From contig DASZZS010000007.1 of assembly GCA_035543295.1 (NCBI GenBank), positions 13,886-77,885 of the forward strand: 64,000 nucleotides of DNA. The letters are read 5' to 3'. Of this stretch, positions 1,486 to 57,793 are shown piece by piece (the first letter of the stretch is position 1; the number at the start of each line of letters is the position of its first letter). The stretch comes from Novosphingobium sp. Its GTDB lineage: Bacteria; Pseudomonadota; Alphaproteobacteria; Sphingomonadales; Sphingomonadaceae. Position numbers and translations under genes: made by a program. The notes beneath the pieces are model-generated. The model was not told the DNA's origin, searched no databases, and was given only the letters and a program-made list of their open reading frames with translations.

Positions 1486-4236
1486 CTAGAAGTCGATCGA
1501 AGCCCGTGCGTAGAGGAAGCGGCCGTTGAAGCCGAACGGCGAGAAGATCGAGAACGGGATATATTCCTGGTTGGCCGGATAGAATCCGCCGACCGAGGCC
1601 GGACGCGCGCCGAAGGGTGAGCGATCGGGGTAGACGTCGAACACATTGTCCGCGCCCACCGCGAAGCTCAGCCGCTCGGTTGGCTTGAAGCGCAGCTCGA
1701 AATCCGTGATCCACTTGGCGCGCAGGAAGATATCGTCCGGGCCATAGTCGGTCAGGCTGGTCGGATTGGCGATCGGGCTGGCCGCGCCGGGCGAAGTAAC
1801 CTTGCCGTAGCGCGTGGTCCGCGCGGTGATCCCAAACACCCCGACGTCGCCATCGAGGCTCAGCACTATCTTGTCGCGCGGTTGGCCTTCGGTGAAGCGC
1901 AGTCCCTCGACGCGGCCAAACAGGATCAGCCCGGGGATGGTCGCAAGCGGCCCGAGGTCGTTCTTGCGGGCGAGGATTTTCTGCTGGTTGTAGTTGTAAG
2001 CCGCGGTCAGCGTCCACTTGCCCACGCCTTCAAGCGGCAAGCGCCAGTTGAGCACCGCGTCGACGCCCTGGGTGCGAGTGTTGAGACCGTTGATGAAGAA
2101 CCGCGCGGCGCCGACCGAAGTGAAGCCGCCCGCATCGAGCACCGCCTTGACCGCAGCGTTGACCGCGGCGGTGCCGCTACCCGCTGCGCCGAGGTTCTCG
2201 GTCAGCACGACGCGGTTGTTGATGCGGATGTTGTAGTAATCGACCGTCAGCGTGAGCCCGCGCATCGGGCTGGCGGTGAAGCCGCCCGAAAGGTTGAACG
2301 ATTTTTCGGCCTTGAGGTCCTTCGAGCCCAGCGCGCGCGCAACCGGGCTGCCCACCGCGAGCGTGCTGATATCCACCGGCAAGCCGCCGATAAAGTTGGT
2401 CGATGTCGTGGTGAAGAACTGCTGGTGCAGCGACGGCGCGCGGAACCCGTTGGAGACCGAGCCGCGGATCGCGAAGCCGGGGGTGAATTCATAGCGCGCG
2501 GCGAACTTGCCGGTCAGCGTGTTGCCGAAGTCGGAGAAGTGCTCGAACCTTGCAGCCAGCGTGGTGGTCAGGCCTTCGATCGGATCGGTGTCGAGTTCGA
2601 AATAGCCGGCAACGCTGTCACGCTTGACGTCGGTCGCGCTCGACAGCGGGATCCCGGGAAAGCCCTGCGAACCTGCGGGTGCGGCGCGGCCGGGGAAGCT
2701 GCAGACACTCGTCCCGGCGTTATAAACGCCCTGTGCGGTCAGGCAGCCCGCCGCCGTCGTCGTCACAGAGGGCTGGAACAGCGGCCCGATCGCATAGGAT
2801 TGGGTGTCGCCCGGGCGGATGTTGAACTGCTCCTGGCGGTATTCGGCACCGAAGGCGACGGTCAGCGGCTTGGCCCAGCCCATGTCGTATTCGCGGCTGA
2901 CATCGAGATTGGCGAGATACTGGCCGTAGCGCAGCCCGCCCGCGTCGAAGCTGCTCTGGCTGGATGGGCCGAAGCTGGTGTTGAGCGAATTCTGCACCTG
3001 ATAGTTGAAAGTGTTGTGGCCATAGCCGAGCGAGCCGTCGATGTTCCACTCGCCCGCGGTGGTGCGCAGCCCGACCGTGGCGGCATAGTCGGTCAGCGTC
3101 GAGGCGATGAAGGGCAGGAAGCCATCGGGGGTGAGCGGCACGAAATTGGCGGTGTTGGGCGCCTGGTTCGGCGCGAGCACCGAATAGTTGCGGTTGGCCG
3201 CCGCGCTCTGCTGGCGATAGTTGGCCGCGCTCAGCGAATCGCGCTTGTTGAAACTGGCGAAGGCATAAAGTTCGGTCGTCTCGCCCAGCGGGACGGCACT
3301 GTTGAGGAACAGCGTGAAATCGTCGGCCTTGGGATCGCCGAAGCGGAACTGGAGCCGGTTGAAAGTCAGCTCGCGCGCGTCGAAGGCTGCGGTCGGGCGG
3401 TTGTAGTTGGGCCGCAGGTCGAAGCCCTGCCGGTTGGTGTAATCGCGGTGACGATATTCGGCGGTCAGATTAAGGTAGCCGCCCGAACCGAAGAACGGCA
3501 GCCCGACGTTGCTGGCGACCGTATAGGTTTCGCCATCGCGCGCTTTGCGCTCGCCATCGGTAAGGGCGAGGAAATAGCGGCTGTCGGTCGGGTCGAGGCT
3601 CGGCTGGCCGGCCGTGACCTGCAGCCCGGTGACATTGGCGACGTTGTCGATAGTGGTGTGATACTTGCCATAGCTCACCGTCGCGCGGCCGCCTTCGTCG
3701 GCCTTTTTGAGCCGGATATTGATCACCCCGGCGATGGCGTCCGAGCCATATTGCGACGAGGCCCCGTCGCGCAGCACTTCGATCCGCTCGATCGCCAGCG
3801 CGGGGATCGAGTTGAGATCGACCGCCGCGGCACCGCGGCCCACCGTGCCGTTGATGTTGAGCAGCGCGGAGACGTGGCGGCGCTTGCCGTTGACCAGCAC
3901 CAGCGTCTGGTCGGGGGAAAGGCCGCGCAGCGTCGCCGGGCGCAGCGCATCGGAGCCGTCGGCGATAGCCGGCTGCGGGAAGTTGAAGCTGGGCACCAGC
4001 TTGCTGAGGATGCGGTTGGTCTCGGTCTGTCCGCCGTTGGTGAGGGCCTCAGCGGTCAGGACATCGACCGGGACGTTGGAATCCTCGACCGTGCGGCCGA
4101 CCGAGCGGGTGCCGGTGACGATGATCGTCGGCTCATCCGCGTCGGCCACAGCGTCCTGCGCCAGCGCGGCGCCGGGCTGGGCCACGGCAATCAGCGAAAG
4201 CGAAGCGAGCAAGGAGTTGCGGGTGGTGCGGCGCAT
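1486..4236 (-). CDS. TonB-dependent outer-membrane receptor
   Basis: ORF 1486..4365. The likely start is Met44 (4236), giving MRRTTRNSLLASLSLIAVAQPGAALA with GGGGGA upstream. There is a plug-domain motif (TIIVTGTR...) and the C-terminus ends ...LYARASIDF with the terminal aromatic typical of beta-barrels. Confidence 0.9.
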   Translation of the reverse strand: MRRTTRNSLLASLSLIAVAQPGAALAQDAVADADEPTIIVTGTRSVGRTVEDSNVPVDVLTAEALTNGGQTETNRILSKLVPSFNFPQPAIADGSDALRPATLRGLSPDQTLVLVNGKRRHVSALLNINGTVGRGAAAVDLNSIPALAIERIEVLRDGASSQYGSDAIAGVINIRLKKADEGGRATVSYGKYHTTIDNVANVTGLQVTAGQPSLDPTDSRYFLALTDGERKARDGETYTVASNVGLPFFGSGGYLNLTAEYRHRDYTNRQGFDLRPNYNRPTAAFDARELTFNRLQFRFGDPKADDFTLFLNSAVPLGETTELYAFASFNKRDSLSAANYRQQSAAANRNYSVLAPNQAPNTANFVPLTPDGFLPFIASTLTDYAATVGLRTTAGEWNIDGSLGYGHNTFNYQVQNSLNTSFGPSSQSSFDAGGLRYGQYLANLDVSREYDMGWAKPLTVAFGAEYRQEQFNIRPGDTQSYAIGPLFQPSVTTTAAGCLTAQGVYNAGTSVCSFPGRAAPAGSQGFPGIPLSSATDVKRDSVAGYFELDTDPIEGLTTTLAARFEHFSDFGNTLTGKFAARYEFTPGFAIRGSVSNGFRAPSLHQQFFTTTSTNFIGGLPVDISTLAVGSPVARALGSKDLKAEKSFNLSGGFTASPMRGLTLTVDYYNIRINNRVVLTENLGAAGSGTAAVNAAVKAVLDAGGFTSVGAARFFINGLNTRTQGVDAVLNWRLPLEGVGKWTLTAAYNYNQQKILARKNDLGPLATIPGLILFGRVEGLRFTEGQPRDKIVLSLDGDVGVFGITARTTRYGKVTSPGAASPIANPTSLTDYGPDDIFLRAKWITDFELRFKPTERLSFAVGADNVFDVYPDRSPFGARPASVGGFYPANQEYIPFSIFSPFGFNGRFLYARASIDF

Positions 4237-8869: not shown

Positions 8870-9484
8870 ATGGAAGACCGTTTCAATACCATCGCCGGCT
8901 GGACGCTGTTTTCCGGCATCGTCGCGCTCGGTCTGTCGAGCCTCAGCGGCAAATATTACGAAGCCAACAAGAGCCATCCGCCGCACACCCCGGGGTACGT
9001 CATCGAAGGCGTGGTTTCGAGCCAGGATGGCGCGGCCGCCGCGGTGCCGATCGAAACGCTGCTGGCTGCCGCCGATCCCGCCAAGGGCGAAGCGGTGTTC
9101 AAGAAGTGCACCTCGTGCCACACGGTAACTGCGGGCGGTGCCAATGGCATCGGGCCGAACCTCAATGGCGTGGTTGGCGAGGGGATCGCGGCGGGCCGCG
9201 GCGGGTTTGCCTTTTCGGACGCACTCAAAAGCCATGGCGGAAGCTGGAGCTTCGCCAATCTCAACGAGTGGCTGACCAGCCCCAAGAAGTTCGCCAACGG
9301 CACCAAGATGAGCTTTGCAGGCCTCGGCAGCGCCGAAGACCGCGCCAATCTGATGGTCTATCTGAACTCGCAGGGTTCGAATGTTCCGCTGCCCGCCGCT
9401 CCGCCTGCGGGCGATGCGGCGGCGGTAGCCGACACTGCCGCGGGAACGGCTCCGCCCGCCAAGGGCGAACCGGCCAAGAAGTAA
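8870..9484 (+). CDS. Membrane-anchored class I cytochrome c
   Basis: N-terminal TM helix (TIAGWTLFSGIVALGLSSL), a CTSCH heme-binding motif, a distal ...GTKMSFAGL Met ligand context, and an Ala/Pro-rich tail. Confidence 0.8.
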   Translation: MEDRFNTIAGWTLFSGIVALGLSSLSGKYYEANKSHPPHTPGYVIEGVVSSQDGAAAAVPIETLLAAADPAKGEAVFKKCTSCHTVTAGGANGIGPNLNGVVGEGIAAGRGGFAFSDALKSHGGSWSFANLNEWLTSPKKFANGTKMSFAGLGSAEDRANLMVYLNSQGSNVPLPAAPPAGDAAAVADTAAGTAPPAKGEPAKK

Positions 9485-9510
9485 CCGATTTCCGGGCAGG
9501 AAATTTGCAG

Positions 9511-9538
9511 CGGGCGGTGCGAAGGCACCGCCCGTTTT
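9511..9538 (+). terminator. Intrinsic terminator of the cytochrome c gene
   Basis: 10-bp stem CGGGCGGTGC/GCACCGCCCG with a GAAG loop, followed by TTTT, 27 nt after the stop codon. Confidence 0.7.
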
Positions 9539-9566
9539 GCGTTGAACCCGACGAGCGAAGACCGGA

Positions 9567-9658
9567 TAAAAAGGAGGCCTCCGTTCGTTAAAAAACGGAG
9601 GCCTCTCGGGATCGTATCACCACCGTTTGGACGGGAGGGGGGGTCTCGGCGGTGACAC
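9567..9658 (-). ncRNA. Candidate EcfG-dependent small RNA (~90 nt) with a C-rich loop
   Basis: Bounded by a perfect minus-strand GGAAC-N16-CGTT box (9689-9665) and a minus-strand-only intrinsic terminator: 12-bp stem 9574-9585/9594-9605 followed by CTTTTTAT. There is no credible ORF. A paper fold gives a 9-bp stem (9647-9655/9617-9625) with loop AGACCCCCCCUCCCGUCCAAA. The transcript ends are estimates. Confidence 0.5.
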
Positions 9659-9664
9659 AGGGGA

Positions 9665-9689
9665 AACGAGGTGCCCGAAGAGTGGTTCC
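9665..9689 (-). promoter_or_regulatory. EcfG (sigma-EcfG) type promoter, GGAAC-N16-CGTT
   Basis: On the minus strand, GGAAC is at 9689-9685, followed by a 16-nt spacer and CGTT at 9668-9665. It lies in an intergenic region and faces away from phyR. Confidence 0.6.
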
Positions 9690-9782
9690 CGCGCGCCAAA
9701 ACTTTTTTCGCACACCCTGTTTGCACCGCGCCAGACAGCGATTATCATCGCAAAACAGCGCGATCTGCCCCGCGCCTTGCAG

Positions 9783-9807
9783 GGAACCGTTGACCGCGCC
9801 GCGCGTT
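9783..9807 (+). promoter_or_regulatory. EcfG-type promoter of phyR, GGAAC-N16-CGTT
   Basis: GGAAC at 9783-9787, a 16-nt spacer, CGTT at 9804-9807, 45 nt upstream of the phyR ATG. phyR autoregulation through EcfG is established for the alphaproteobacterial GSR. Confidence 0.75.
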
Positions 9808-9851
9808 GACCAGAAAGTGCGCCTGCGGGCGCTCGAGAGGGAAGGGTAAGA

Positions 9852-10646
9852 ATGACACTTGGCACCCAAGTTGCCGTACAACTTCCGTATCTGCGCCGCT
9901 ACGCCCGGGCGCTGACTGGCTCGCAGAGCACCGGAGACGCCTTTGTTCGCGCGACGCTCGAAGCCGCGCTGGCCGATCCCGAGTTGCAAGAGTCGCTGGC
10001 TGGCGGACGCGTGCCGCTCTACCGCGCGTTCAACAAGGTCTGGGCGAGTGCCTATGTCGAGGTTGGCAACGACGATGGCGACGGCGGTGACCATGAAACC
10101 GCGGTCCAGTCGCGCCTCGCCACCATCACCCCGCTCAATCGTCAGGCACTGCTCCTCACCACGCTTGAAGATTTTTCCGCCGAAGAGGCGGCCCAAGTGA
10201 TGGACCTTGCCCCCGATGCGATAGATTCGCTGGTTCAGGAAGCCGTTGACGAAATCGATCGCGAGTCGACCACCAGCGTCCTGATCATCGAGGATGAGCC
10301 GCTGATCGCGATGCAACTGGAAGATTTGGTCAAGACGCTGGGCCACGACATCTGCGGCACCGCCGCGACCCGCAGCCAAGCGCAGCAAGTGGTGGCCGAG
10401 CGCCGTCCCGGTTTGGTGCTGGCCGATATCCAGCTCGCCGATGGCAGCTCCGGGCTCGACGCGGTCGACGATATTTTGGCGATCGGCAGCGTCCCGGTGA
10501 TATTCATCACCGCGTTCCCCGAACGGCTGCTGACCGGCGACCGGCCGGAGCCGACGTACCTCATCACCAAACCGTTCCGCGAATCGACCGTCCGCGCGGC
10601 GATCAGCCAGGCGCTGTTCTTCGGCTCAAGCCGCCCGCTGAACTAG
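9852..10646 (+). CDS. phyR: PhyR anti-anti-sigma factor (sigma-like domain plus receiver domain)
   Basis: The N-terminal ECF-sigma-like half (LPYLRRYARALTGSQSTGDAFVRATLE...) is fused to a receiver domain (VLIIEDEPLIAMQLEDLV...LVLADIQLADGSSG...ITAFPERLL). This is the diagnostic PhyR architecture. Confidence 0.92.
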   Translation: MTLGTQVAVQLPYLRRYARALTGSQSTGDAFVRATLEAALADPELQESLAGGRVPLYRAFNKVWASAYVEVGNDDGDGGDHETAVQSRLATITPLNRQALLLTTLEDFSAEEAAQVMDLAPDAIDSLVQEAVDEIDRESTTSVLIIEDEPLIAMQLEDLVKTLGHDICGTAATRSQAQQVVAERRPGLVLADIQLADGSSGLDAVDDILAIGSVPVIFITAFPERLLTGDRPEPTYLITKPFRESTVRAAISQALFFGSSRPLN

Positions 10647-10681: not shown

Positions 10682-12340
10682 CTAATCCCGGTCGGCGCGA
10701 ATCCGGAAGTTTACCGGCAGCCGCACCGGCACCAACAGCGTGCAATTCACCCCGCCCGGGTCGAACCGCAGGTCAACCGCGGTGCCCAGCTCATGCGCGA
10801 CGATCTTCTCGATCAGCTCGGTGCCGAAGCCGCGGCGGTTCCCGGCGACGACGGGGGGCCCGCCGCGCTCGGTCCAAACCACCCGGGCCAAGCCTTGCGT
10901 GACGAGGTCCCATTGCACTTCAACCGTCCCGGCAGGCACGCTCAACGCCCCGAATTTCGACGCGTTGGTCGCCAGCTCGTGGAGCGCCAGGCCAAGCGAC
11001 AGCGCATCGTTGGGCGCAATTTCGATCTGGGGGCCGCGCGTCACCACGGTTCCTTCAGCCCCGCCGAGGTAGGGAGCCAACTCGGCATCGACCACCGAGC
11101 GGATCGGGGTTGTGCCCCATTCCGACTGGGTCAGCAGATCGTGGGTTGCCGACAGCGCGCCGATCCGGCCCATCAGCGCCTCGCTGAATTCGTCGAGGTT
11201 GCTGGCTCTGCGCTTGGTCAGCGAGATGATCGACAGCACGTTCGCCAGCGTGTTTTTGACCCGGTGGTTGAGCTCGCGCATCAGCGAGTTGCGGATCGAC
11301 GCCTGCTGTTCGAACCAGGCCAGCGCGTTGCGGTCCTCGATCGCCTGGCGCGTGATCAGCCGGATGACGATCAGGATCATGGCAGCGGCCAGCAACCCGA
11401 ACAGCAGCGTCAGCACCGAAAGGCTGGACAGCCGGGCCGGCTTGGGCGCCTCGAGGCCAAGCGTCATTACCCGCCCCGCGATCGTCACCTTGTCATACCG
11501 CCAGACCCCGCCAGCGGGGCGCACTCCGACCTCGGCCAGCAGCCGGTCCGCGCGCGGTTCGCCGTCGAACAGGCGAGTCCCATAATTCGCGCGCTGGTCG
11601 TTCGTCAGCGCCGCGTTGAGCACGGTCTGCGCGGTGAACCCGCTATAGACAAAGCCCACCAGCTTGCTGTTGGATCCGTGCTGATCGAACACGGGCATGA
11701 ACATGAGGAACCCCGCGCGGTTGCCCATGTCCTGGTCCTGGATCAGTACAATTTTGCCGCTGGCGGTCGGCGTATTGCTGCGCGCCGCCAGGTCCATTGC
11801 GGCGCGCCGCACCGGTTCCGAATAGAGATCGTAGCCCATTGTAACCCGGTTGCGCGGGGTTTCCGGCTCGAGGATGGTCACCGGCACGCGCACCCCGTTG
11901 CCCGCGCCGCCCGCCGGGAATATCCGGTAGTCGGCATAGCCTTGGGCGCGCATCGCGGCGGTGAAGGCCGCCTCCTCACCCCGCACCAGCAGCTTTGCCC
12001 AGCCCATCCCCTCGGCGCTGTGAAAGTTGGGATCGCGGGACAATTGCTCGGTAAAGCGGCGAAACTGTTCGGACGAGATGCTCTCGCGCTCGGCAATCAA
12101 GGCCGCGCCGGCCAACAAATAGGCCGAATTGGAACTTGCCCGACGGTCGATGGCGGCGGTCACGGATTTGGCGACCTGCGCGACTTTCTCCTGCGCGCCC
12201 TGGGCCTCGACCCGCTCGATCGCGAAGACGCATAGTGCGGTCAGCGCCGCTGCCAGCAGGAAGGCGCCGGTGGGCAGCGCGCGCGGGAAACGGGCATACC
12301 AACGATTGGCTGCAACGCGCGCGGCGACCTTATTCTCCAC
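10682..12340 (-). CDS. CHASE-domain sensor histidine kinase of the HWE/HisKA2 type (candidate PhyR kinase)
   Basis: GTG start. Two TM helices flank a periplasmic CHASE-like domain (MGYDLYSEPVRRAAMDLAARSNTPTASGKIVLIQD). The H-box ELNHRVKNTLANVLSIISL is typical of HWE/HisKA_2 kinases. The gene is convergent with phyR. Confidence 0.85.
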   Translation of the reverse strand: MENKVAARVAANRWYARFPRALPTGAFLLAAALTALCVFAIERVEAQGAQEKVAQVAKSVTAAIDRRASSNSAYLLAGAALIAERESISSEQFRRFTEQLSRDPNFHSAEGMGWAKLLVRGEEAAFTAAMRAQGYADYRIFPAGGAGNGVRVPVTILEPETPRNRVTMGYDLYSEPVRRAAMDLAARSNTPTASGKIVLIQDQDMGNRAGFLMFMPVFDQHGSNSKLVGFVYSGFTAQTVLNAALTNDQRANYGTRLFDGEPRADRLLAEVGVRPAGGVWRYDKVTIAGRVMTLGLEAPKPARLSSLSVLTLLFGLLAAAMILIVIRLITRQAIEDRNALAWFEQQASIRNSLMRELNHRVKNTLANVLSIISLTKRRASNLDEFSEALMGRIGALSATHDLLTQSEWGTTPIRSVVDAELAPYLGGAEGTVVTRGPQIEIAPNDALSLGLALHELATNASKFGALSVPAGTVEVQWDLVTQGLARVVWTERGGPPVVAGNRRGFGTELIEKIVAHELGTAVDLRFDPGGVNCTLLVPVRLPVNFRIRADRD

Positions 12341-12431: not shown

Positions 12432-12456
12432 GGAACATTTCCGGATATTTTTCGTT
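12432..12456 (+). promoter_or_regulatory. EcfG-type promoter of nepR-ecfG, GGAAC-N16-CGTT
   Basis: GGAAC at 12432-12436, a 16-nt AT-rich spacer, CGTT at 12453-12456, about 150 nt upstream of nepR. Confidence 0.75.
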
Positions 12457-12491
12457 CCCGATTGCAACGTGTGACTTTTTCGTCCTTCTTG

Positions 12492-12603: not shown

Positions 12604-12777
12604 ATGGCAGACAACAAGGCAAAATCTTCGATGCATACTGATACGTCCAGACGCGGTTCCGGCCGACAGCCCGAATGGGCGAAAGGCCTGCGCCAGTTGT
12701 ACGATTCGGTGGTCGACGAACCGCTGCCGGACAGCTTCGCCGATTTGATTGCCAAGCTGGATTCCGGCACCAAATGA
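12604..12777 (+). CDS. nepR: NepR anti-sigma factor (57 aa; absent from the supplied ORF track)
   Basis: Hand translation gives MADNKAKSSMHTDTSRRGSGRQPEWAKGLRQLYDSVVDEPLPDSFADLIAKLDSGTK. The core LRQLYDSVVDEPLPDSFADLIAKLD matches the conserved NepR helix pair. The stop overlaps the ecfG start (ATGA at 12774-12777). An alternative start lies at 12631. Confidence 0.85.
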   Translation: MADNKAKSSMHTDTSRRGSGRQPEWAKGLRQLYDSVVDEPLPDSFADLIAKLDSGTK

Positions 12778-13373
12778 CGGATCGCTCCGCGGCTACGGCC
12801 GCTGCATTCAAGCGCGAGATGCTGGCGGTCGTCCCGCATCTGCGCGCATTCGCCCGGGGCCTGTGCGGCCGCGCCGATGTGGCCGACGATCTCGTGCAGG
12901 AAACCCTGCTCAAGGCCTGGGCGGCGCAGGAGCGCTTCGAACCGGGCACCAGCATGCGCGCCTGGACCTTTGTGATCCTGCGCAACGCCTACCTCACCGA
13001 AATGCGCCGCAACCGCTTCCGCGGCGATTACGACGAAACCGTCGCCGAGCGCATCCTGGTCGCCCCGCCAGGGCAGGAAGGGCCGCTCCACCTCTCGGAC
13101 ATGCATCGCGCGCTGCTGACGCTGCCGCCCGAACGGCGCGAGGCGCTGTTGCTGATCGGCGCGGGCGGGTTCAGCTACGAGGAAGCCGCGCAAATTTGCG
13201 GTTGCGCGGTCGGCACGATCAAGAGCCGCGTCGGCCGTGCCCGCGCCACGCTGTCGGGCATGATCGAGGAAGGCGCGATTCCGCGTCGCTCGCTCGATGA
13301 CGCCGTCGCGCACACCGCGATCATGAGCGAACTTGAATCGGTATCGAATGGCGGTGGGCAAGGTTCGCGCTGA
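12774..13373 (+). CDS. ecfG: ECF sigma factor EcfG (general stress response sigma)
   Basis: MTDRSAATAAAFKREMLAVVPHLRAFARGLCGRADVADDLVQETLLKAW... covers region 2, and ...LPPERREALLLIGAGGFSYEEAAQICGCAVGTIKSRVGRAR covers region 4. It is translationally coupled to nepR. Confidence 0.9.
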   Translation: MTDRSAATAAAFKREMLAVVPHLRAFARGLCGRADVADDLVQETLLKAWAAQERFEPGTSMRAWTFVILRNAYLTEMRRNRFRGDYDETVAERILVAPPGQEGPLHLSDMHRALLTLPPERREALLLIGAGGFSYEEAAQICGCAVGTIKSRVGRARATLSGMIEEGAIPRRSLDDAVAHTAIMSELESVSNGGGQGSR

Positions 13374-21357: not shown

Positions 21358-22019
21358 GCCGATCGGGCCGCGATCTGGGCACGCGGGTCAAGACCGCCAA
21401 GGGGCGCACCGCCAGTTCGAACCGCTGGCTCGCGCGCCAACTCAACGATCCCTATGTCAAACAGGCCAAGGCCGACGGCTATCGCAGCCGCGCGGCCTAC
21501 AAGCTGGCCGAGCTCGACGAGCGCTTCACCCTGCTGCGCGGCGTCGAGCGCGTGATCGATCTGGGCATCGCACCCGGCGGGTGGAGCCAGGTGGTCCGGC
21601 TCAAGGCACCCAAGGCCAAAGTGGTGGGGATCGACCTGCTGCCGACCGACCCGATCGACGGGGTGACGATTTTCGAGATGGACTTCATGGCCGACGAAGC
21701 GCCCGCCGCGCTCGAAGCGGCGCTGGAAGGTGCGCCCGACCTGATCCTGTCGGACATGGCCGCCAACACCGTCGGTCACAAGCAGACCGACCATTTGCGC
21801 ACAATGGGGCTGGTCGAAACCGCCGCCGATTTCGCGATCGCCGCGCTGGCACCGGGGGGGGCGTTCGTTGCCAAAGTGTTGGCGGGCGGGACCGACACCC
21901 AGCTGCTCACGCTGCTCAAGCGTCATTTCACCGCGGTCAAACACGCCAAGCCGCCCGCGAGCCGCAAAGGCTCGTCGGAATGGTACGTCATTGCCCAAGG
22001 ATTCAAGGGCCGGACGTAG
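21354..22019 (+). CDS. rlmE: 23S rRNA (uridine2552-2'-O)-methyltransferase
   Basis: WLARQLNDPYVKQAKADGYRSRAAYKLAELDERF, DLGIAPGGWSQV and SDMAANTVGH. The start overlaps the ppx stop (ATGA). Confidence 0.9.
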   Translation: MSRSGRDLGTRVKTAKGRTASSNRWLARQLNDPYVKQAKADGYRSRAAYKLAELDERFTLLRGVERVIDLGIAPGGWSQVVRLKAPKAKVVGIDLLPTDPIDGVTIFEMDFMADEAPAALEAALEGAPDLILSDMAANTVGHKQTDHLRTMGLVETAADFAIAALAPGGAFVAKVLAGGTDTQLLTLLKRHFTAVKHAKPPASRKGSSEWYVIAQGFKGRT

Positions 22020-22449
22020 CCGGTTCGCCGAGCAAGCGCCCGATCAGCCCGACTTTCCTGGGAGACGCCTGTAGCGCCGCGATCAGTGTCTCGGGTGCGT
22101 AGGGCTTTTCGAGTATCGTTCCCAACTCGGCTATATGGGCTGGGATCACGCCAGGGTTGGCTGTGGAAAAGACGATGCGCGGCGGTTTGGGGCCAAGTTG
22201 GGTCAAAAGTTCGGCAATCGCCCAACCATCGTCGCGGTCGGCCAGGTGGACGTCGAGGATGACCAAGTCGGGGCGGCGGCTCTCAAGTTCGGCAAGCGCG
22301 GCGTCGGTGCTCGCGCAGCAGTGAACCGACCTGGCTCCGCCATCGAGCAACGCCTGTTCGATCGCCATGCACAGGATCGCGTCGTCCTCGACCACCAGCA
22401 CATGACCAAGCGAGCCGCGCTTTTTCCTGCTCTTGGTCGTGCTGGTCAT
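22003..22449 (-). CDS. Single-domain response regulator (receiver only)
   Basis: 148 aa: VLVVEDDAILCMAIEQAL...DLVILDVHLADRDDG...ILEKPY. There is no output domain. A perfect EcfG box lies 25 nt upstream of the ATG. Confidence 0.85.
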   Translation of the reverse strand: MTSTTKSRKKRGSLGHVLVVEDDAILCMAIEQALLDGGARSVHCCASTDAALAELESRRPDLVILDVHLADRDDGWAIAELLTQLGPKPPRIVFSTANPGVIPAHIAELGTILEKPYAPETLIAALQASPRKVGLIGRLLGEPATSGP

Positions 22450-22474: not shown

Positions 22475-22499
22475 AACGCTGCGAATGCTGCGACGTTCC
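22475..22499 (-). promoter_or_regulatory. EcfG-type promoter of the single-domain response regulator, GGAAC-N16-CGTT
   Basis: On the minus strand, GGAAC is at 22499-22495, followed by a 16-nt spacer and CGTT at 22478-22475. It lies in the 55-nt gap between the upstream gene's stop (22505) and the regulator ATG (22449). Confidence 0.65.
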
Positions 22500-27210: not shown

Positions 27211-27570
27211 GGCGGGGTAATGGCTTGGGCAGCCCCCAAGGTCAATCGCGCGGGTCCATTGCCGAGGGCGGGAAGCGAAAGGTGACTAAAGGTGACACCA
27301 AGGCACGCGCTCACCGGCGTCGCCCATCGCCGAAAAACTGCGTTGATTTCCTTGCGTTTTTAATCAGGGCAGGGTGACAAAGGCGACACCGTGTCACCCA
27401 AATTATGCTACCTTTATCCATTTGTTTCAACAGGATAAGCTCGCAAGGGTGGCAGATGATATATTCCGCCGCAGCAACGCCGCGCGCCGACAGGATCGAA
27501 GGGCCGACGATTGGAAAGAGCGGCCAAGAGGATAGCAGGCGGCGGGCGTGTAGGAAAATGGTGTTGCTAG

Positions 27571-27692
27571 TACCTCCCCGGCACGGGAGGGGGACCAGCG
27601 AAGCTGGTGGAGGGGTCCCACCTCTCCGCAGCTGCTGTGCTGGAGGCGAAGGGGGACCCTCCGTCAGTCCTGAGAAGGGAACCGCCCCGGCA
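27571..27692. repeat. GC-rich nested-palindrome element (family 2)
   Basis: CCTCCCCGGCACGGGAGGGGGACCAGCGAAGCTGGTGGAGGGGTCCC...GGGGGACCCTCCGTCAG... It shares its architecture (GGGAGG-GG, short hairpin, GGAGGGGT ... CCCTCCGTCAG) with 59471-59617. The boundaries are approximate. Confidence 0.5.
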
Positions 27693-53274: not shown

Positions 53275-56185
<2,911 letters not shown>

Positions 56186-57639: not shown

Positions 57640-57649
57640 CCCCAAATGA

Positions 57650-57685
57650 AAACGGCCGCCTCGCTGGATGGCGAGACGGCCGTTT
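57650..57685. terminator. Strong hairpin terminator shared by the convergent M20 gene and the small ORF
   Basis: AAACGGCCG-C-CTCGC [TGGATG] GCGAG-A-CGGCCGTTT, 14 bp with one internal mismatch. On the minus strand it is followed by TCATTT, giving TTTTCATTT. On the plus strand it is followed by CGGGGGG. Confidence 0.6.
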
Positions 57686-57709
57686 CGGGGGGATTGTGCA
57701 CCCGCGGCT

Positions 57710-57793
57710 TTAGACAAGCGTGGCGGTGAACATCAGTCCGCTGGTCGAAACCGCGGCGATGATCGGCAGCACAATCAGAACGATGCTGCGCAT
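57710..57793 (-). CDS. 27-aa hydrophobic small protein (unannotated)
   Basis: ATG at 57793, preceded by AGGAGA and a 6-nt spacer. It encodes MRSIVLIVLPIIAAVSTSGLMFTATLV, with TAA at 57712-57710 and a terminator hairpin ~25 nt downstream. It is below the ORF-track size cut-off except as the tail of a longer, implausible 63-aa ORF. Confidence 0.5.
   Translation of the reverse strand: MRSIVLIVLPIIAAVSTSGLMFTATLV

Follow-up and report, generated by a model that had tools for sequence, protein, structure and literature searches.

A candidate EcfG-dependent small RNA gene divergent from phyR in Erythrobacteraceae and Novosphingobium-type sphingomonads

The general stress response locus and the element upstream of phyR

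The stretch of DNA analysed here, 64 kb in length and hereafter called the window, carries a general stress response (GSR) locus with a candidate small RNA (sRNA) gene adjoining phyR (Table 1). The order of genes is sRNA (minus strand), phyR (plus), a gsrP-like kinase gene (minus) and nepR-ecfG (plus). PhyR and the CHASE-HWE kinase were identified by their Pfam domains, and NepR and EcfG from reading of the open reading frames. The GSR locus of Erythrobacter litoralis has been described with the same arrangement (10.1101/641647), and the PhyR proteins closest to that of the window (81% identity) belong to Erythrobacteraceae genera. A cytochrome c gene converges on the sRNA terminator, with a hairpin and T-run of its own near 9508-9540. 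In assemblies carrying the exact PhyR sequence, no gene was called between cytochrome c and phyR.

Table 1. Coordinates of genes, promoter elements and predicted RNA features in the window.
Feature	Position	Strand	Remarks
Cytochrome c gene	8870-9484	plus	
Intrinsic terminator, 13-bp stem and CUUUUUAU tail	9566-9605	minus	terminator scan; stem 9605-9574
Conserved linker ACGAUCCCGA	9606-9615	minus	single-stranded from 9613
5'-terminal hairpin, 12-bp stem and 21-nt loop	9614-9658	minus	9658-9647 pairs with 9625-9614; MFE and centroid folds agree
Unpaired C-rich loop AGACCCCCCCUCCCGUCCAAA, proposed seed	9626-9646	minus	C-rich core 9633-9643
Inferred transcription start, G9658 or G9656	9656-9658	minus	7-9 nt past the -10, as in Caulobacter gsrN
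-10 element CGTT	9665-9668	minus	16 nt past the -35
-35 element GGAAC (EcfG/ECF15 type)	9685-9689	minus	fixed distance from the RNA
A/T tract AAAAAAGTTTT, UP-element-like	9698-9708	minus	about 9-19 nt upstream of the sRNA -35
Sigma-70-like site TTTGCA-17-TATCAT	9720-9748	plus	upstream of the phyR EcfG box
Divergent phyR box GGAAC-N16-CGTT	9783-9807	plus	GGAAC 9783-9787, CGTT 9804-9807
phyR	9852-10646	plus	Pfam PhyR_sigma2, PhyR_sigma-like, Response_reg
CHASE-HWE kinase gene (gsrP-like)	10682-12340	minus	Pfam
nepR-ecfG box GGAAC-N16-CGTTCC	12432-12458	plus	between nepR and the kinase gene
nepR	12604-12777	plus	
ecfG	about 12774-13373	plus	
Single-domain receiver gene	22003-22449	minus	Pfam Response_reg only
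Fourth EcfG box	22475-22499	minus	directly upstream of the receiver gene

Between the cytochrome c and phyR genes, the minus strand carries an element (9566-9708) consisting of an A/T tract, an EcfG box and then a predicted RNA of ~90 nt, in which a 12-bp stem at the 5' end encloses a 21-nt C-rich loop CCCCCCCUCCC and is followed by a GAUCCCGA linker and a terminator. A preliminary description of this DNA, made from the sequence alone, had proposed an EcfG-dependent sRNA gene here, and the features on which it relied were found on re-examination. The perfect GGAAC-N16-CGTT box on the minus strand is present exactly as described, and it faces away from the phyR box with 94 bp between the two -35 elements. 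The terminator, said to work on the minus strand only, was called by the terminator scan on that strand alone, with 13 pairs followed by CTTTTTATCC. Folding of a 99-nt stretch gave a minimum free energy of -46.3 kcal/mol (z = -6.5), a stability reached by none of 200 shuffled sequences, and the predicted fold has the proposed 21-nt C-rich loop on a 5' stem, with 12 base pairs enclosing AGACCCCCCCUCCCGUCCAAA and the terminator following. No G-rich partner for internal pairing is present in the loop.

We considered whether the hairpin at 9574-9605 was instead the terminator of the cytochrome c gene, and rejected this, as its T-run is on the minus strand only and cytochrome c has a hairpin of its own.

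Four GGAAC-N16-CGTT boxes occur in the window against 0.44 expected, a number reached by one of 100 shuffled sequences. In addition to the boxes of the sRNA candidate and phyR, the remaining two precede nepR-ecfG and the single-domain receiver gene, and it is plausible that all four precede GSR genes. The nepR-ecfG box is nearly palindromic (GGAAC...GTTCC) and is flanked by nepR and the divergently oriented CHASE-HWE kinase gene, matching the bidirectional site proposed for nepR-ecfG/gsrP of E. litoralis (10.1101/641647). The receiver encoded next to the fourth box is probably GSR-regulated and LovR/SdrG-like. The only sigma-70-like site near phyR lies upstream of its EcfG box, and phyR may thus have both a constitutive and an EcfG promoter; phyR of E. 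litoralis has been reported to be constitutive.

Conservation and covariation of the RNA

To describe the element in relatives, we used a starting set of 80 PhyR-anchored loci. The tract CCCCCC(C)TCCC recurs upstream of phyR on the minus strand in these loci, and the whole element could be aligned across relatives, from the A/T tract through GGAAC, the -10, the 5' hairpin and the linker to the terminator. A covariance model of the family (R1) found, at E<1e-3, exactly one full-length copy per source in 53 sources, all on the strand opposite to phyR. Every Erythrobacteraceae locus with upstream sequence scored 72-110 bits, and eight Novosphingobium-type loci, whose loop is a variant carrying two C-runs, scored 33-45 bits. 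No R1 copy was found in the Sphingomonas, Sphingopyxis and non-sphingomonad loci of the PhyR-anchored set. A minus-strand box of Sphingomonas was examined as a positional analogue and discarded, as it drives nepR and not an sRNA.

Both helices of the predicted RNA covary. In the 53-member alignment, which was fitted to the model and so favours pairing, 97.5% of cells formed standard pairs, compared with 31-54% when the partners were slid, and double-sided changes occurred in 17 of 21 pairs; none of 500 shuffles reached any of the five covariation measures. Helix 1, the 5' stem, showed double-sided changes in 7 of 11 pairs with 96.4% of cells paired. Helix 2, the terminator, was retained in relatives: each of its 10 pairs showed compensatory changes, and 98.7% of cells were paired. 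An independent MAFFT/RNAalifold analysis of 33 sequences recovered the same two helices with 11 compensatory pairs. Together, the predicted fold and the covariation of helix 1 would place a C-rich loop in an exposed position within a 5' stem-loop.

Conservation of the single-stranded regions was of a different kind. The loop, with the family motif CCCCCC(C)UCCCGUCC, is conserved more strongly than any other part of the RNA: in the 45 close members, 14 of its 20 occupied columns do not vary. By comparison, the major-allele frequency is 0.36 for the terminator loop and 0.47 for the 5' flank. All 53 members, those of the Novosphingobium type included, have the linker core GAUCCC without change. 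The stems are thus constrained as structure and the loop and linker as sequence, which is the signature of a base-pairing seed. The GAUCCC linker is possibly a second seed or a processing or chaperone site.

The preliminary description had also found no credible open reading frame in the interval, and this holds for the family, in which the median longest sense open reading frame is 0 codons (maximum 23). We therefore rejected a small protein-coding gene: no open reading frame is conserved, the C-run varies from 5 to 8 C in single-base steps, and the changes in the stems are compensatory and not synonymous.

The linkage to phyR was also investigated in reverse, by scanning metagenome contigs with the loop core. 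This returned at least 120 contigs. phyR was present in 56/56 contigs with at least 2.6 kb on the 5' side of the RNA, and it was divergent from the loop core in all 98 contigs showing phyR, mostly at a distance of 175-290 nt and in a few cases at 655-1059 nt. The gene order sRNA / phyR / gsrP / nepR-ecfG is kept across relatives, and the downstream neighbours in the window (cytochrome c and a carboxyltransferase) are found in none of them. We conclude that the element is almost certainly a real, conserved and structured sRNA gene.

Several loci depart from the common arrangement. A Crp/Fnr-like gene is located between the sRNA and phyR in L001, L003, L004, L007, L008 and L072 (about 3050-3950), and Crp/Fnr-like and single-domain receiver genes are both located there in L021, L025, L029, L032, L035 and L037 (about 2600-3950). 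In these 12 loci the sRNA is unchanged and retains a promoter of its own, its position being directly downstream of the Crp-like gene. The terminator hairpin of the sRNA, GGGCCACCGTTCCCCCGAGCGGTGGCCC, is present as a tandem duplicate in L031 (about 3700-3790, minus). In L039, the sRNA is immediately followed downstream by an extra ecfG-like gene (2928-3488, minus; 56% identity to EcfG of the window) with its own EcfG box. In the Novosphingobium-type loci, there is a second box on the minus strand, some 400 nt upstream of phyR.

Outside the family, the Sphingobium nicotianae locus (L061, about 3690-3866, minus) has a GGAAC-N16-CATT box 134 nt upstream of phyR. Next come a hairpin of 13 bp, whose 20-nt loop reads ACCCUCCUCACCCCCCAAAA, and more C-rich tracts, with no clear terminator seen; judging from this single sequence, the element may be an analogue that does not belong to R1. 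Within the window, R1 gave one further, weak match at 57648-57737 (minus; 20 bits, E = 0.097), consisting of CAATCCCCCCGAAA and then a terminator hairpin. We rejected this as a second sRNA copy, since only the linker and terminator half is resembled, probably by chance.

The promoter and its sigma factor

The promoter was kept in relatives together with the RNA. All 53 members have the -35 element GGAAC, whose distance to the RNA is constant, and the -10 reads CATT in 34 members, CGTT in 13 (two of which have a 17-nt spacer), TGTT in 2 and another sequence in 4, so that C[A/G]TT is found in 47/53. The description of the box as perfect therefore applies to the window and does not extend to the family: CGTT is the minority state within Erythrobacteraceae, most of which have CATT, and the exact EcfG consensus is present in the window, in L031 and in all Novosphingobium-type members. 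A strict search of the minus strand of the PhyR-anchored relatives with GGAAC-N15-17-[CG]GTT mostly gave no match because the -10 reads CATT there, the promoter itself being retained in the alignment. The position of the inferred sRNA start (alignment column 7) is a purine in 51/53 members (41 G, 10 A).

About 10 nt upstream of the -35, an A/T run of at least 8 nt is present in 72% of the 53 sRNA promoters, compared with 1% of 107 other GGAAC-N16/17-CGTT boxes in the same loci. The family tract is AAAAAATTTT-like, and we take it to resemble the distal UP-element consensus.

From these promoter sequences, EcfG is likely to drive the sRNA. This reading assumes that EcfG recognises the CATT-type -10 of 34/53 members. 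Alternatively, the RNA may be real and transcribed by a sigma factor other than the main EcfG, either another ECF sigma factor or a paralogue of EcfG that prefers another -10; the sRNA would then not be a simple output of the GSR. The CATT -10 fits this alternative, as the phyR and nepR boxes of the same loci read CGTT; GGAAC-like -35 elements are common to many ECF groups, and the extra ecfG-like gene of L039 adjoins the RNA. However, the window, L031 and all Novosphingobium-type members have the exact EcfG consensus at the same position, and both the spacing and the -35 are invariant. The looser RpoE2 consensus GGAAC-N18-19-TT would accommodate CATT, and the promoter of Caulobacter gsrN, which is experimentally sigma-T dependent, aligns with that of the family. 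We therefore consider transcription by another sigma factor unlikely.

Relation to GsrN and possible modes of action

How the PhyR-NepR-EcfG switch works in the alphaproteobacterial GSR is well understood, and a post-transcriptional arm has been experimentally characterised only in Caulobacter, where it is provided by the sRNA GsrN. The six-cytosine loop of GsrN determines target recognition, its C-run pairs with G-tracts in leaders and activates katG, and its 5' half is sufficient for function (PMC5869019). The preliminary description had pointed to GsrN, and this comparison proved apt: promoter design and the layout of a 5' stem with a C-run are common to both, though there is no homology of RNA sequence. 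GsrN of Caulobacter crescentus (CCNA_R0081) and the sRNA are both about 90-106 nt in size, and both have an A-tract before a GGAAC-N16-CGTT sigma-T/EcfG promoter, a 5'-terminal stem that leads into an exposed C-run, and then an unpaired linker and an intrinsic terminator. The gsrN genes of most Caulobacteraceae adjoin the GSR locus (PMC5869019), as the sRNA adjoins phyR. When the Caulobacter gsrN promoter sequence (supplement of PMC5869019) was compared with the family profile, it aligned from the A-tract to the start site with 11.7 bits, a score reached by none of 1000 shuffles. With the family nhmmer profile, only the promoter of the Caulobacter gsrN locus aligned, and the body of the RNA had no detectable homology.

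The two RNAs also differ in architecture. The 5' domain of GsrN has a 14-bp stem, an asymmetric internal loop, an inner hairpin and a second small hairpin, whereas that of the sRNA is a simple hairpin whose loop is 20-21 nt long. As loop motif, the sRNA has CCCCCC(C)UCCCGUCC and GsrN has CGCCCCCCGAC, and most sRNA members have a CATT -10, unlike GsrN. Processing to a stable 5' isoform, stabilisation by Hfq, activation of katG and a role in peroxide survival are known experimentally for GsrN. The three in-silico features of GsrN-like RNAs given by Tien et al. (an EcfG box, a position near the GSR locus and an exposed C-rich 5' loop; PMC5869019) are all found here, the loop as predicted from the fold. 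Because of these features on the one hand, and the lack of homology in the RNA body and the simpler 5' domain on the other, we regard the sRNA as GsrN-like and GSR-linked, yet a distinct RNA family. Putative GsrN-like RNAs of Rhizobiaceae, Brucella and Bradyrhizobiaceae were predicted by position and EcfG box (PMC5869019, Fig. 9) and likewise lack sequence homology to Caulobacter GsrN. They belong to a different clade, and no covariation was reported for them (PMC5869019), in contrast to the covariation over 53 members described here.

Other known RNAs were less similar. A search of the whole window against Rfam 15 at gathering thresholds identified two tRNAs only, and a search of 9400-9900 at E<=10 gave no relevant family, families with C-rich or anti-Shine-Dalgarno loops included. 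The preliminary description had likened the loop to those of the Rhodobacter CcsR RNAs; the resemblance in loop composition stands, while kinship does not, as no Rfam family matches even at E<=10. The CcsR1-4/'cuckoo' and alpha-r14-type RNAs of Rhodobacter and Sinorhizobium are stress-induced and have CCUCCUCCC C-rich loops resembling anti-Shine-Dalgarno sequences, and RpoHI/HII drive their transcription; their hairpins are repeated in tandem, and a small DUF1127 gene is part of the same transcript. On the same Rfam result, the sRNA is not a member of this type. SuhB of Sphingopyxis granuli TFA is also an sRNA of a sphingomonad, which becomes sensitive to several stresses when SuhB is lost; it is activated by a LysR-type regulator, and its regulon is largely GSR-independent (10.64898/2025.12.09.693200). 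SuhB has no positional or sequence relationship to the sRNA, and R1 finds nothing in Sphingopyxis loci. SuhB was the only characterised sphingomonad sRNA in the literature that we searched, which yielded no account of an sRNA under EcfG control in any sphingomonad.

A survey which proposed GsrN-like RNAs as general reported none in its one Erythrobacteraceae species, E. litoralis, stated to have 'no apparent gsrN-like gene' (PMC5869019), and the paper on the E. litoralis GSR regulon makes no mention of any sRNA (10.1101/641647). By extrapolation from other Erythrobacter and Porphyrobacter loci, E. litoralis itself would carry the sRNA. New here is an RNA family outside Rfam with 53 genomic and at least 120 metagenomic members, covariation and an invariant seed-like loop. 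With it, the 'sigma factor plus linked sRNA' design reaches Erythrobacteraceae and the Novosphingobium-type sphingomonads, bacteria that abound in the sea and in soil; in concept, this is the extension of a known design and not the discovery of a new one. The covariance model can be used for annotation, and since RNA-seq data from E. litoralis ecfG and phyR mutants already exist, the prediction is testable at once.

Considering promoter, terminator and covariation together, all of which bear out the reading of an EcfG-dependent sRNA candidate with predicted expression, we think it likely that 9566-9658 (minus) is a real, independently transcribed, EcfG-driven and trans-acting sRNA gene of ~90 nt, the Erythrobacteraceae counterpart of the GsrN class. 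Action in trans through the C-rich loop is, taken by itself, reasonably likely. In this model, the PhyR-NepR-EcfG partner switch would release sigma-EcfG, which would read the GGAAC-N16-C(G/A)TT promoter, with the upstream A/T tract probably boosting it as an UP element. The RNA would start directly with a stable hairpin displaying the invariant 20-21-nt pyrimidine loop CCCCCC(C)UCCCGUCC, and a 3' hairpin and U-tail would end transcription. The loop, and possibly the GAUCCC linker too, would pair in trans with G-rich stretches of mRNAs, with Shine-Dalgarno regions or leader G-tracts as candidate sites, and pairing would alter translation or stability of the mRNA as a post-transcriptional output of the GSR. 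Anti-Shine-Dalgarno pairing is one possible type of target interaction; the C-run of GsrN activates katG through G-tracts in the leader (PMC5869019). The model, from transcription and EcfG dependence through base pairing in trans to the identity of the targets and the direction of regulation, is one that we infer from sequence and comparison. The absolute linkage to phyR counts against it, as a purely trans-acting RNA has no obvious need of such linkage.

This linkage can be read in two other ways. [quoted passage not shown] Such feedback would account for the absolute divergent linkage, and the CATT -10 and UP-like tract would set an activation threshold unlike that of other EcfG promoters. 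We regard this extended role as improbable. Alternatively, the element may act mainly in cis on the GSR locus, either through supercoiling or polymerase competition at phyR or through feedback on the phyR, nepR and gsrP mRNAs, and this would explain why the sRNA never leaves phyR. The divergent arrangement in 98/98 contigs, mostly within 175-290 nt of phyR, and the 94 bp between the two -35 boxes of the window are consistent with action in cis. In 27% of loci, compared with 5% expected, the nepR leader also ranked within the top 5% of partners for the loop, and many phyR Shine-Dalgarno regions read GGGAAGGG. However, none of the three mRNAs was consistently favoured by the loop, with median duplex ranks of 0.24 (phyR initiation region), 0.32 (nepR leader) and 0.42 (gsrP leader). 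Autoregulatory feedback via the loop was rejected on these ranks, and feedback of the sRNA on phyR, nepR or gsrP is not supported. In addition, the RNA is unchanged in the 12 loci with a Crp/Fnr-like insertion, so close promoter coupling is not required; it is kept in relatives whose phyR promoter has no EcfG box; and a purely transcriptional effect does not need an invariant loop sequence. A mainly cis-acting element is therefore quite unlikely.

The pyrimidine loop may also serve as a sponge or decoy which binds or titrates a protein or another RNA in place of pairing with mRNA. The strict invariance of loop and linker could equally reflect a site recognised by a protein or RNA or a seed, and searches for mRNA targets assigned none. 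The latter carries little weight, as the searches covered the 64-kb window and short loci, and we know of no candidate partner for a sponge. GsrN, the closest characterised analogue, pairs with mRNA through its C-run (PMC5869019), and we consider a sponge very unlikely. That there is no gene at all, and that box, hairpins and C-run are a chance mix or the hairpin a cytochrome c terminator, is virtually untenable: hairpins are abundant in high-GC genomes and coincidence is conceivable for a single window, but the element is conserved with covariation in 53 loci and at least 120 metagenome contigs, and the cytochrome c gene is absent from all relatives.

Targets of the putatively trans-acting sRNA were sought in the 64-kb window and the short loci. 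Within the window, the loop complement GGGAGGGGG with at most one mismatch occurred 29 times against 25.6 expected, which is chance frequency, and the best RNAduplex partners of the loop were mostly intragenic, with no target identified. Among the best predicted duplexes was one with the leader of gyrB (53567-56122, minus) at 56136-56175 (minus), where a G-tract GGAAGGGGGG lies about 30-45 nt upstream of the gene; this site is indistinguishable from chance. A G-rich and hairpin-rich region at 27556-27670 (plus), which has no Rfam match and lies in the frame of a 255-aa open reading frame without a Pfam hit, contains an exact complement of the loop core, GGGAGGGGG, at 27585-27593.
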